Positions 41,184 through 46,524 of a stretch of 64,000 nucleotides of DNA are shown one piece after another. The notes under the pieces are model-generated. The model was not told the DNA's origin and made no database searches. It was given only the letters and a program-made list of their open reading frames with translations. Positions within the stretch are counted from its first letter, which is position 1. Each line of letters opens with the position of its first letter. The stretch is from Escherichia phage vB_EcoA_4HA11, in the sequence record MN445184. One strand, given 5' to 3'. The position numbers and the translations under genes are program-made.

Positions 41184-41642
41184 CTAATTAGTCGTCAATC
41201 TTTTAATCTTCATGGAAGAAAAATCAAATCCGTGGTCAACATTGCTTAAAACGGGTTCGATTTCACACAATTCCCAACGGGGATCTATGAGAGAAACAAG
41301 ACCAATGTGTTCACCTGTGGATGTCAATTTTGCTGCAGTTTTACCCAGCATATGACTTCCATCATTACCGCCTTTATTCATGTTGTAACCCATCTCATAA
41401 GAATTATATTGAGAGATGAGTTGCTTCTCTAATTCCCATTTATGGACTTCATCGGTCTGAGCAATTACAACGAAAGTAAATCCAGATGTTCCATACTTAC
41501 GCATGGCATCATACAATTCACTTTGGACTCCATGATGAAAAGCATTCGCAAAATGCTGATCATATCTTCGTTGTGGGTCATTGGTCACACCGATGTAGAC
41601 CTTTCCATTAGTTATCGTTTCAATTTTGTATGCGTATATCAT
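41184..41642 (-). mobile_element. GIY-YIG homing endonuclease (I-TevI-like catalytic domain)
   Basis: IYAYKIETITNGKVYIGVTNDPQRRYDQH...E...GYNMNKGG parallels I-TevI GIYQIKN..NNKVYVGSA...RWKRH...GYNI; inserted between sheath and tube genes. Confidence 0.75.
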
Positions 41643-43646: not shown

Positions 43647-45857
43647 TCAATTCTTAAACCACTCATCCATGGTCATCCCTGACATTTCGTTGAAAACTTG
43701 AATACCCCCGAAACCAGGCAAATGCTCAGTTTCGGATGGGGTGTCTCCAACGACTAAACCGCCAAATGGGAATACCTGCTGAGATTCAGTTGAAGACATT
43801 CGGTTTCTCATGTCCTGAGAAATACTTGTAGATGTCAAATCACTGAACCATTCTTGTTTTACCGCCCATGAATATAAGACCAACGGCATGACACAGTCAT
43901 CGTGACAACCGTCATCGGCTTCATACCGAGCGCCTTTGAACACAAATGTACTGAGTTCATCTATCGTGTCCTGGTCTTCTATCACCAACATTTCTTTCTC
44001 AATGAGCGCTTTCAGGTTAGCACAACCGATAGATCGGACTTTTCTGTTGGTATTGATACCAGGTTCCGGTTTACGCCCACCAATCCGTTTCCCCGTCCCT
44101 TTGTTATCTGTTGATGTGAATATGATTTCTGGATATTCTATCTCTTGATAAAGAATTGTAATAACCTGACCGCCGACGTCGTTGTTTGTTTCAACAAGGA
44201 CAGGACATTCCCCGTATTCGGTGCACATATCAGCTATCGTGTATGCATACATCATAGGAGGTATCGTATTATTCCTGTACTTGGCTGCTATGACATGCGG
44301 ATATTCAGTTATATCCAGAATTGTTAAGACGGAATAATCTCCTTCCACCCCCTTCCCAGTGTCCGCAATCCCAAAGTAGAGACGTTGTGGGTCGTATTCC
44401 TTATAAATCTTGGTGAATTCATTAGGTTCCCGATACAACTTGGACGTCATTTTATCTAAGCATTTGGCCGGAATCAATGAACCCACGGAACCACGGAACT
44501 TAATGCCAAATTCTTGATCGAAACGAGCATCCCCCAGACGGGCACGTTGTTTGGTTTCCCAATCTGGATCTTTGGTATATGCCGGAACCTTATACCATGG
44601 GACTTCAGTTAGGTGGAAGTCGTTGTATTGTGGATGGCGCGGATCTGCTTTGGTGACAATATCATAGAACAACCCTCGCTGGCCTTTCGGAGTACTTGTC
44701 AAAATACAGCGTGATGTATCGGCAGATGCAATGGCTGGGAAAGTTGATTCCCAAAATTCAAAGTCGTTTTCGATAAACGCGACTTCGTCAACGTACAAGA
44801 GCGATACAGAACGACCACGGATGGAGTCCGAAGACGTGGCATAAGCGTATATCTTAGAACCATTTTCAAACTCTATCAGGGTAGAACCAAACTTCTCACA
44901 ACCCTGCTGAAGGAAGAATGGAAGGTCTTGGTATGCCTTTCTGATACGGTCAAGAATTTCTATCGCTTGTTTCTCTTTGTTTGCCAGTACTGCGATTTCC
45001 TTATCAGAATGGAACATCGCATACCAAAGAAGAAACGCCGCCACCACGGTCGTGTTATGACTGAGAAAGCCATTCGTGTAATAACGTTGATCACTAGATT
45101 TGACCTGCAGATCGTACATATGGTGATATTCACCAGTCTGCCAAATCTCACGGATTTCTTCTGGACCTTCTGTCGTCATGATGTATGACCCAGCATTCAG
45201 GTCTTTGGCAAATGTCTCCTTCATGTCCGGAGTGAAGAACATATGTTCATCGGCCACGTTAATTCGCCTTCCGGTAACTGTGACAATAACGAATTCCGCA
45301 TATTTCTTCGTCTTATGCGCTGCGATAACCGGAACCCAGCCACTATCGGATTGTACAAAGTAACGTTTGCCGAAGCGGCTGTCCACGAACTTGTCATGGT
45401 TGCCAATGGTATTCAGCGGCACAGCGTGGTTGACGTCCTCGAATCGGCTGTGAAGCTCCCCTATGGTCAGGAGCAACTCCTCTTGGCTGAGAGTATCGTA
45501 AACTGTGACAAGCGTGTCGCCTTTTACACATTTTCCAGACTGACGAGCCTGGATGACCGCATTGAATCGATAGTCCTGAAAGTCATGGAACAACTGTTTC
45601 TGATAATCATGCATATCGAAAAGGATAAAGCCTTTATCGATCGTGGTTATCTTGTAATAGTTGGCGGCGAAGTAGTGTGCATCCATAGAACATTCAACGA
45701 ATTCGTCTTCTTGTTCATCTGTCAGCATTAACTCGACTCGAGGAGCACGCACAGAAGGTTTGCGCATAAACGTTTGGTCCATACGCAATTTCACATCGTC
45801 TATTTTGAACCCCGTTTTAATTGGGGCATATTCTATATCACGCTTCTGATACGCCAT
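43647..45857 (-). CDS. gp17: terminase large subunit (gp17-like) interrupted by an intein
   Basis: Extein flanks ARQSGK / TTVVAAFLLWYAMF match T4 gp17 P-loop SRQLGKTTVVAIFLAHF; nuclease-domain region downstream. Confidence 0.9.
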   Translation of the reverse strand: MAYQKRDIEYAPIKTGFKIDDVKLRMDQTFMRKPSVRAPRVELMLTDEQEDEFVECSMDAHYFAANYYKITTIDKGFILFDMHDYQKQLFHDFQDYRFNAVIQARQSGKCVKGDTLVTVYDTLSQEELLLTIGELHSRFEDVNHAVPLNTIGNHDKFVDSRFGKRYFVQSDSGWVPVIAAHKTKKYAEFVIVTVTGRRINVADEHMFFTPDMKETFAKDLNAGSYIMTTEGPEEIREIWQTGEYHHMYDLQVKSSDQRYYTNGFLSHNTTVVAAFLLWYAMFHSDKEIAVLANKEKQAIEILDRIRKAYQDLPFFLQQGCEKFGSTLIEFENGSKIYAYATSSDSIRGRSVSLLYVDEVAFIENDFEFWESTFPAIASADTSRCILTSTPKGQRGLFYDIVTKADPRHPQYNDFHLTEVPWYKVPAYTKDPDWETKQRARLGDARFDQEFGIKFRGSVGSLIPAKCLDKMTSKLYREPNEFTKIYKEYDPQRLYFGIADTGKGVEGDYSVLTILDITEYPHVIAAKYRNNTIPPMMYAYTIADMCTEYGECPVLVETNNDVGGQVITILYQEIEYPEIIFTSTDNKGTGKRIGGRKPEPGINTNRKVRSIGCANLKALIEKEMLVIEDQDTIDELSTFVFKGARYEADDGCHDDCVMPLVLYSWAVKQEWFSDLTSTSISQDMRNRMSSTESQQVFPFGGLVVGDTPSETEHLPGFGGIQVFNEMSGMTMDEWFKN
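45054..45530 (-). mobile_element. mini-intein (159 aa) within terminase large subunit
   Basis: Insert begins CVKGDTLVTV, ends GFLSHN, followed by Thr; splits the Walker A motif between GK and T. Confidence 0.75.
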
Positions 45858-46524
45858 CGTCTTCTTCCTTCACATCAACTGTTTCACCATCAATGATTTC
45901 ATCTTCTGGTTGTTGTGCGGCCTTTGCTTGTGCTCTTTCTTCAGCGCGACGGCGGGCATCTTCAATCGTCTTCAATAAATCGCGAGAAGATCGCGCCTTT
46001 TTCCCAACCGATACTGTTGTTGTTCCGTCTGGTGAAGTTGTAACATCCACTGTCGTGTCATCAACAGGTGGTTCTTTATCACCTGTTACTGCCTTGATGG
46101 TTTTCTGGTTTTCCATCAAGTCTTTATTCAGACCGCGCATGAGTTCACCCAATTCACGGAAAACAGAAAATGCTCGCGGAGCTTCTGTGGATGCAGCCAA
46201 TTTAGCGGCTTGTCCCATCATGAACATTGTGGCTTCTTGCATGGCATATGTTGTGTCGCGTATCCGTTTGTAATCCGTTGTAGCATCAGTGTCCGCAAAC
46301 TCAGGTACTTTGGATTCCTTGGAAGCAATATCCTCCAATGAAGGAGGTTCAGGAATCGGCTGATACCCTTCCGGACGTTCACCAAACCATTCACCTGTAT
46401 TTTCATCGAAGTCAATACCTGGACGAGGGGCGACAGCCTCCATCGCCTCCTTCCCAACTTCGTCTCGGGCGGTCACTGCATCAAGTGTGGCGAGTAACCT
46501 TTCTGACATATTGCTCATGATCAA
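45838..46524 (-). CDS. terminase small subunit (gp16-like, by position)
   Basis: Immediately upstream of and overlapping the large subunit; likely ATG 46518 with GGAGG SD. Confidence 0.5.
   Translation of the reverse strand: MIMSNMSERLLATLDAVTARDEVGKEAMEAVAPRPGIDFDENTGEWFGERPEGYQPIPEPPSLEDIASKESKVPEFADTDATTDYKRIRDTTYAMQEATMFMMGQAAKLAASTEAPRAFSVFRELGELMRGLNKDLMENQKTIKAVTGDKEPPVDDTTVDVTTSPDGTTTVSVGKKARSSRDLLKTIEDARRRAEERAQAKAAQQPEDEIIDGETVDVKEEDDGVSEA

Follow-up and report, generated by a model that had tools for sequence, protein, structure and literature searches.

The large terminase gene of Escherichia phage vB_EcoA_4HA11 raises a question: Why is the ATP-binding loop of a packaging enzyme interrupted by a segment of 159 amino acids (aa)? 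We have analyzed a stretch of 64,000 nucleotides (nt) from this phage (sequence record MN445184), which we call the window. The answer we propose, with a probability of about 0.93, is that the segment is a class-1 mini-intein without a homing endonuclease, inserted in frame after Lys109 and before Thr269 in the Walker A motif of a gp17-type large terminase subunit (TerL) and presumably removed by protein splicing.

The insert in the ATPase motif

The interrupted gene, terL, is an open reading frame (ORF) coding for a precursor of 736 aa, with a computed mass of 84.5 kDa. The protein matches Pfam Terminase_6N with 60.3 bits (cut-off 22), and the match to the nuclease domain, Terminase_6C, is slightly under its cut-off (20.9 bits, cut-off 22.6). 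The exteins, on both sides of the insert, are 56% identical to TerL of Vibrio phage D494 and 32% identical to T4-type gp17, with a coverage of more than 90% of the length. By these matches, the host protein is a gp17-type large terminase (Terminase_6).

The insert includes residues 110-268 of TerL and is coded on the minus strand of the window, from position 45530 to position 45054. The stretch directly before it reads ...FNAVIQARQSGK. At the junctions, AVIQARQSGK is followed by CVKGDTLVTV...GFLSHN, which are the ends of the 159 aa, and then by TTVVAAFLLWYAMF. The insert begins with Cys, ends with His-Asn and is followed by Thr as residue +1. It splits RQSGK/TTVVAAF, and the residues on both sides, Lys109 and Thr269, belong to Walker A. 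When the insert is removed in silico, a TerL of 577 aa with an unbroken RQSGKTTVVAAF is obtained.

We have aligned the protein, using MAFFT, with its closest insert-free homologues: TerL of phage D494, TerL of Ralstonia phage RSP15 and gp17 of the T4-like phage RB14. The insert appears as a single clean gap in all three proteins, where GKTT is continuous. The uninterrupted motif is CRQSGKTTVVAAFLLWYALF in D494 (also quoted as CRQSGKTTVVAAF), ARQMGKTTIVAGF in RSP15, whose extein identity to the window TerL is 43%, and SRQLGKTTVVAIFLAHF in RB14 (also quoted as SRQLGKTTVVAIF; extein identity 32%).

The original prediction, made by a model from the sequence alone, had placed the insert at 45054-45530 (159 aa, residues 110-268) without naming the strand, and these limits match ours exactly. 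The Cys at the start, the His-Asn at the end and the Thr after them are borne out in the translation of the ORF. The position between GK and T of the P-loop is also correct, since removal of the insert restores a continuous Walker A in the alignment with the three intein-free homologues, and the contiguous P-loop quoted for T4 is verified in gp17 of RB14. The prediction had also proposed a search with intein profiles and had noted that an insert of this length has no room for a homing endonuclease domain; both points are confirmed by the results that follow.

The isolated insert is above the curated cut-offs of two intein profiles: 35.9 bits for Pfam Intein_splicing (cut-off 35.8, E = 8e-9) and 24.9 bits for TIGR01445, intein_Nterm (cut-off 24.5). 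We have searched 1.84 billion representative proteins exhaustively with HMMER and obtained 676 relatives of the insert, 299 of them at E<=1e-10. Nearly all of the best homologues (149 of 150) have HN at the C-terminus, followed by T (94 cases), S (54) or C (1). When 26 contiguous family members, 29-79% identical, are aligned, the invariant intein positions are C1, K47, T74, A93, D94, H96, G122, M138, D140, L156, S157, H158 and N159. A profile of the family matches VidaL (E = 1.7e-13), gp41-1 (4.7e-11) and CatC (3.4e-9), an engineered consensus of atypical TerL inteins. CatC is also the best match in the PDB when the single sequence is used (E = 0.0046).

The fold leads to the same family of proteins. 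The AlphaFold2 model of the insert, built with an alignment of 23 sequences, has a local confidence (pLDDT) of 92.2 and a predicted template modelling score (pTM) of 0.85. Its sole uncertain part is a loop at intein aa 31-45, where pLDDT is 57-74, against at least 93 elsewhere. In a Foldseek comparison with the PDB, the top 50 matches are all of the intein/Hint type (inteins and the intein-like BIL2). The best one is VidaL (E = 8e-11, TM 0.79/0.86); NpuDnaB, PhoCDC21-1, TFIIB mini-inteins and gp41-1 are also found, as is Pho RadA, with a TM of about 0.8.

We call mini-inteins those with about 130-200 aa and with no LAGLIDADG, HNH or other endonuclease domain between the splicing blocks. The insert is within this size range, Intein_splicing is its only Pfam match, and no endonuclease domain is seen in the AlphaFold2 model, where the chain is fully covered by Hint-fold strands and one loop of 15 aa.

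Several observations should be set against this reading. The full-length TerL scores barely under the Pfam and TIGRFAM intein cut-offs; it is only the excised segment which passes them. AlphaFold2 is uninformative when it is given the single insert sequence (pLDDT 31). In block B the essential His of the TxxH motif is present as an invariant His96, but the canonical Thr is missing and Ala93 takes its place. This is weak evidence against an intein, because A-D-x-H is found in the whole family, in which some relatives are experimentally active; CatC and VidaL, which have been characterised by experiment, share it. We have found no splicing experiment on this or any other TerL intein of the family Ackermannviridae in the searchable literature, and one proteomic study gives just four TerL peptides, whose positions are not stated.

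The coordinates of the different parts of the gene are given in Table 1, together with those of other features mentioned in the text. The terL DNA is 99.5% identical to that of Salmonella phages SS3 and SS9 and 99.1% identical to that of Escherichia coli phage CBA120, and the order of the surrounding genes (gp13/14/15-like, terS, terL, sheath, tube, portal) agrees with CBA120. From these similarities, the phage is a Kuttervirus, family Ackermannviridae. An ORF with a GIY-YIG domain is found elsewhere in the window; it corresponds to CBA120 orf195, which is annotated as 'homing endonuclease with GIY-YIG motif'. A tRNA scan gives no tRNA genes in the window.

Table 1. Features of the terL region; positions refer to the window unless another record is named
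Feature	Position	Strand	Description	Basis
terL ORF	43647..45857	-	736 aa, stop codon included	
N-extein	45531..45857	-	TerL aa 1-109, ends with Walker A RQSGK	sequence and alignment
Mini-intein, class 1	45054..45530	-	159 aa, TerL aa 110-268, Cys1 to His158-Asn159	anatomy, profiles, fold
Block A	45492..45530	-	intein aa 1-13, CVKGDTLVTVYDT, Cys1 nucleophile	C1 invariant in 26 members
Variable surface loop	45396..45440	-	intein aa 31-45	low model confidence
Block B	45234..45269	-	intein aa 88-99, RINVADEHMFFT, His96	A93, D94, H96 invariant
Blocks F and G	45054..45125	-	intein aa 136-159, HHMYDLQVKSSDQRYYTNGFLSHN, Asp140, terminal Ser-His-Asn	invariant residues
C-extein	43650..45053	-	TerL aa 269-736, starts with Thr+1 (TTVVAAFLLWYAMF), rest of ATPase and nuclease domain	sequence, Pfam, alignment
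terS (small terminase)	45838..46524	-	20-nt overlap with terL start	
GIY-YIG domain ORF	41184-41642	-	152 aa, between tail-tube and tail-sheath genes	Pfam E 1.3e-11
NUMOD3 endonuclease gene, phage barely	L005:1306-2187		equivalent window site is the terS/terL overlap, 45838-45857, gene absent	

Proposed splicing, distribution and alternative explanations

The splicing pathway we propose is taken over from the established class-1 mechanism. The Hint domain would fold within the 84.5-kDa precursor, and an N-S acyl shift would take place at Cys1. The side chain of Thr+1 would then attack the thioester, which would give a branched ester. Asn159 would cyclise, assisted by His158, and free an intein of 18.3 kDa, while an O-N shift would link GK with TT. 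The product would be a TerL of 577 aa and 66.2 kDa, with its P-loop intact. The predicted ligated junction is ...ARQSGK-TTVVAAF... (...ARQSGKTTVVAAF...), and its unspliced counterpart would be ...GFLSHNTTVVAAF.... Trypsin would cleave the spliced TerL at the junction Lys; the predicted peptide would be TTVVAAFLLWYAMFHSDK, which does not span the junction.

We infer that splicing occurs, since the residues needed for it are intact and the phages are viable. The terL gene is carried by more than 200 records of propagating phage isolates, and an essential TerL must become functional, because these phages are easily isolated and propagated. Packaging should depend on splicing: The insert parts the Walker A Lys from the Thr, so the ATP-binding loop would form only after ligation.

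All close relatives sampled carry the intein at the same TerL site; they belong to five genera of Ackermannviridae (Kuttervirus, Taipeivirus, Limestonevirus, Agtrevirus and Miltonvirus) and to one unclassified Vibrio member. Its length is the same in the five genera. The amino acid identity to the window intein is 76% in Taipeivirus (Klebsiella) and in Limestonevirus (Dickeya), 75.5% in Agtrevirus (Shigella, Salmonella) and 69% in Miltonvirus (Serratia). The intein of Vibrio phage SD25 is about 35% identical and has 20 additional aa in the loop. A query with a peptide spanning the ligated junction gives no close intein-less allele among the top matches. All matches to this query with at least 90% identity span 681 nt in two pieces, so the intein is present in them.

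The original prediction had considered that the intein would be refuted if all homologous terminases carried the segment as a native domain. It is true that the close relatives sampled all carry it, but D494 and RSP15 lack it precisely. We have also compared the proportions of nonsynonymous and synonymous differences (pN and pS). They are 0.146 and 0.774 between the two Kuttervirus alleles of the intein described below, which indicates that the intein is under purifying selection. Amino acid change in the intein is about 10-30 times faster than in the exteins, whose pN is 0.000-0.014. This pattern, together with the precise absence in D494 and RSP15, the Hint fold and the invariant splice residues, speaks for a fixed intein and against a native domain. 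Fixation is where an intein should end up when it has lost its endonuclease and when an essential motif does not allow its imprecise deletion.

Fixation might also have a different meaning. A conditional or regulatory intein, whose splicing rate is tuned by temperature, redox state, or binding to DNA or to the procapsid, could act as a post-translational timer of packaging, and would then be more than a neutral passenger. In favour of this, none of the close relatives examined is without the intein, which is under purifying selection; it sits in the catalytic loop, where the precursor should be inactive, and regulatory roles of P-loop and TerL inteins are discussed by Kelley et al. 2016. Nevertheless, we consider this explanation quite unlikely. 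No sensor is indicated in the sequence, and a disulfide switch within the intein is excluded: Cys1 is its only cysteine, and Val is found where most family members have a Cys beside block B. The difficulty of a precise deletion from an essential motif explains fixation equally well, and D494 and RSP15 manage without the intein.

The presence of the segment in all close homologues would also agree with a degenerate Hint domain which does not splice, if the terminase worked with the domain in place or if another protein supplied the ATPase. This is very improbable, as C1, H96, D140, H158, N159 and T+1 are intact and invariant over a deep divergence, and the annotation of the syntenic region of CBA120 shows no other terL-like ORF. 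Besides, with 159 residues in its middle, a P-loop is unable to form the GKT phosphate-binding turn. The chances are negligible for a bacterial intein-like (BIL) or 'pretoxin HINT' domain, which would cleave or process TerL instead of splicing it. The records of Dickeya phages phiDP23.1 and phiDP10.3 do use the latter name, and BIL2 structures are found from rank 31 downwards, where the fold matches are weaker. However, the word 'pretoxin' comes from automatic domain naming, and true inteins give the best matches in both sequence and fold. Domains of the BIL type are found in variable, non-essential proteins which have no conserved +1 context suited to splicing, whereas the enzyme here is essential, the motif which the insert splits is highly conserved, and so are the +1 nucleophile and the HN at the end. 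The anatomy of the junctions is practically enough to refute this reading. A mini-intein which splices is the reading we retain.

Two alleles in a mosaic gene

Kuttervirus genomes contain two alleles of this intein. Allele K1 is found in the window, CBA120 and SenALZ1, and allele K2 in Vi01, Marshall, barely, BSP101, SFP10 and SenM-2. They are 72.5% identical in nucleotides and 78.6% in amino acids. The two are deeply diverged and have similar frequencies: Judging from identity bands, K1 is present in about 90 of some 190 Salmonella and Escherichia records. Within each allele class the intein DNA is 99-100% identical, against differences of up to 13% in the parts of terL around it. There is also a slight offset in base composition: The G + C content is 47.6% in the intein and 42.5-44.5% in the exteins, and at third codon positions it is 54.7% and 45-48%, respectively.

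We have followed the parentage of terL site by site. The N-extein of barely, BSP101, SFP10 and SenM-2 resembles the window for the most part, until some 15 nt ahead of the intein; from there through the intein the sequence is similar to Marshall. Of the six K2 genomes examined, four thus have a 5' boundary in common, which lies no more than about 15 nt from the splice junction and may correspond to a single inherited event. The 3' switch is different: It is found near nt 1120 in barely and near nt 1300 in SFP10 and BSP101, and there is none in SenM-2. The terL gene of Mansal is recombinant within the intein.

The value of pS between the K1 and K2 inteins is 0.77, a level found between genera, while the exteins of the same pair have values of 0.41-0.56. 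This suggests that one of the alleles came from outside, or else that the exteins have been homogenised. These data do not prove a mobility specific to the intein, since mosaicism is also seen elsewhere in the region. The drop in identity at the intein of barely could be taken as a sign of intein-specific homing, but this interpretation is weakened by the broad mosaicism of terL, which has several other breakpoints. It is conceivable, though unlikely, that an intein which has lost its endonuclease still moves as a unit between co-infecting phages, either by homologous recombination guided by the exteins or with the aid of free-standing homing endonucleases acting in trans, or that the dimorphism is kept by selection. 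Selection of this kind could possibly rest on co-adaptation of intein and exteins or on conditional splicing.

Some genomes of Kuttervirus, Limestonevirus and Agtrevirus have a free-standing gene for a NUMOD3 homing endonuclease (F-LimIX-like) between terS and terL. The terS/terL junction of the window contains no homing endonuclease gene, in contrast with these relatives. Genomes with the gene show an altered N-terminus of TerL: MAYKKEIDWAPEKTG versus MAYQKRDIEYAPIKTG. We have considered whether allele K2 travels with this endonuclease, and we have rejected the idea. The gene is absent from many K2 phages (Vi01, Marshall, BSP101, SFP10 and others), and it can be found in K1 phages, such as SenALZ1, BRM 13313 and selz. 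Besides, the stretch of approximately 300 nt which separates the gene from the intein in barely is mostly similar to the window (93-100% in each bin of 60 nt, 95.6% overall). A laboratory deletion mutant of selz, clone 8t2 (OL964747.1), does not contain the terS/terL endonuclease gene present in another selz clone (OL964736.1) and retains the K1 intein. The NUMOD3 endonuclease gene is therefore dispensable.

Relation to known inteins

The intein is correctly identified, but it is already known: It has been published for sister phages since 2013. The genome announcements of Marshall and Maynard (2013) and Magnus (2019) describe a large terminase interrupted by an intein (PMC3853055, PMC3868846, PMC6763660). 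The GenBank record of Salmonella phage Marshall, a Kuttervirus (KF669653), contains an 'intein-containing terminase large subunit; intein from Cys110 to Asn268', for which mat_peptide features are given, and the TerL intein of Klebsiella phage Magnus, a Taipeivirus (MN045230), is annotated likewise. A stand-alone 'intein' protein also exists in RefSeq for Marshall and Maynard, 79% identical to the window intein. The host gene, the insertion point, the length of 159 aa and the Cys110-Asn268 numbering are the same as in the window. The difference lies in the allele: The K1 intein of the window is 78.6% identical in amino acids and 72% in nucleotides to the K2 intein of Marshall, and 76% identical in amino acids to that of Magnus.

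Only one point is new here: The allele of the window goes unannotated in the K1 records we have examined. These include SS3, SS9, CBA120, SenALZ1 and others, and the intein is annotated in none of them. Most Kuttervirus records which carry K1, CBA120 included, just say 'terminase large subunit'. Several Kuttervirus records name the intein-bearing TerL 'hypothetical protein', and in Dickeya phages phiDP23.1 and phiDP10.3 (KM209320.1, KM209271.1) the homologous intein-bearing TerL appears as 'pretoxin HINT domain protein'. Both labels are likely annotation errors due to the intein. Since the intein is not labelled in these records, trees or structure models obtained from unspliced TerL, or the 'pretoxin HINT' names, are misleading. 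The value of this case as a discovery is small, because terminase inteins are among the commonest phage inteins and the same intein is annotated in sister genomes. It may be useful in other ways. The phages grow easily on E. coli and Salmonella, which makes them a convenient system to test the effect of a P-loop intein on the timing of packaging and on fitness, and the mosaic of two alleles is a natural data set on the persistence and movement of inteins after the loss of the endonuclease.

In mycobacteriophages, TerL is the commonest intein host, and the Lys/Thr position of the P-loop is considered a 'classic' intein site (Kelley et al. 2016, mBio). The intein TerL1-a of these authors likewise separates the invariant Lys of Walker A from the nucleophilic Thr in a large terminase, but its host belongs to the family Terminase_1, while the host in the window is of the gp17 type, Terminase_6. 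The only intein they describe in a Terminase_6-like protein, TerL6-f, is placed in the C-motif and not in the P-loop. Five terminase inteins at other sites were found to splice (TerL1-b, TerL1-c, TerL1-e, TerL6-f and Pham3880-g); the Lys/Thr intein TerL1-a was not assayed in that study.

The fold of the window intein is shared with the mini-intein of RadA from Pyrococcus horikoshii (PDB 4E2T), with a TM of about 0.8. The host of the RadA intein is an archaeal recombinase and the sequence identity is only about 15-17%. The RadA intein is also inserted at GK/T of an ATPase P-loop, with Thr+1. Inteins of the same sequence family as that of the window are found at GK/T or GK/S of other P-loop proteins: They include DnaB-like helicases and, judged from the C-extein motif alone, Clp/AAA-like ATPases.

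Two phage genes show related arrangements. In the cultured Vibrio phage vB_VmeM-32 (L016:1102-3216) the annotated TerL starts within the intein (MNDKFLEINP...IASHN/TTVTAILLAHY), and a second intein is found further on. The N-terminal half of this TerL was not found at the other end of its record. In Campylobacter phage CP21 (L015:2494-6339) a related intein is placed three residues upstream in the P-loop of TerL (PRQ/C...SHN/SSKST). The terL gene of CP21 is in pieces (CP21_125 and CP21_127), and the intervening ORF, CP21_126, has a GIY-YIG-like stretch, seen by eye only.

The closest systems in sequence are AceL-TerL, GOS-TerL, the consensus Cat (PDB 6DSL) and VidaL (6VGV), which belong to the same family as the window intein. 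Blocks B, F and G are shared with these systems (C/V-A-D-x-H, M-Y-D-L and Y-Y-T-N-G-I-L-S-H-N). The residue before A-D-x-H is Cys in most family members and Val in Ackermannviridae. AceL-TerL and GOS-TerL are split inteins, with N-fragments of 25 aa and 37 aa, respectively (2025 review, PMC11766414), whereas the window intein is contiguous and would splice in cis, with one ORF across both exteins. Most of the closest homologues (99 of 150) begin slightly before intein position 46 or so (M...RKFI[DE]...), contain the C-terminal 113 residues, approximately, of the intein, and continue through ...YYTNGILSHN into a TerL-like C-extein. From its sequence, this architecture is that of the naturally and atypically split AceL-TerL/GOS-TerL type. 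The whole intein is aligned in just 13 of the 150. The natural split point falls at the flexible loop of the window intein, aa 31-45; the same site hosts the 20 aa insertion of SD25 and large inserts, which are found in some inteins of 395-483 aa. In summary, the window intein is a contiguous relative of AceL-TerL, Cat and VidaL, the split inteins used in biotechnology.

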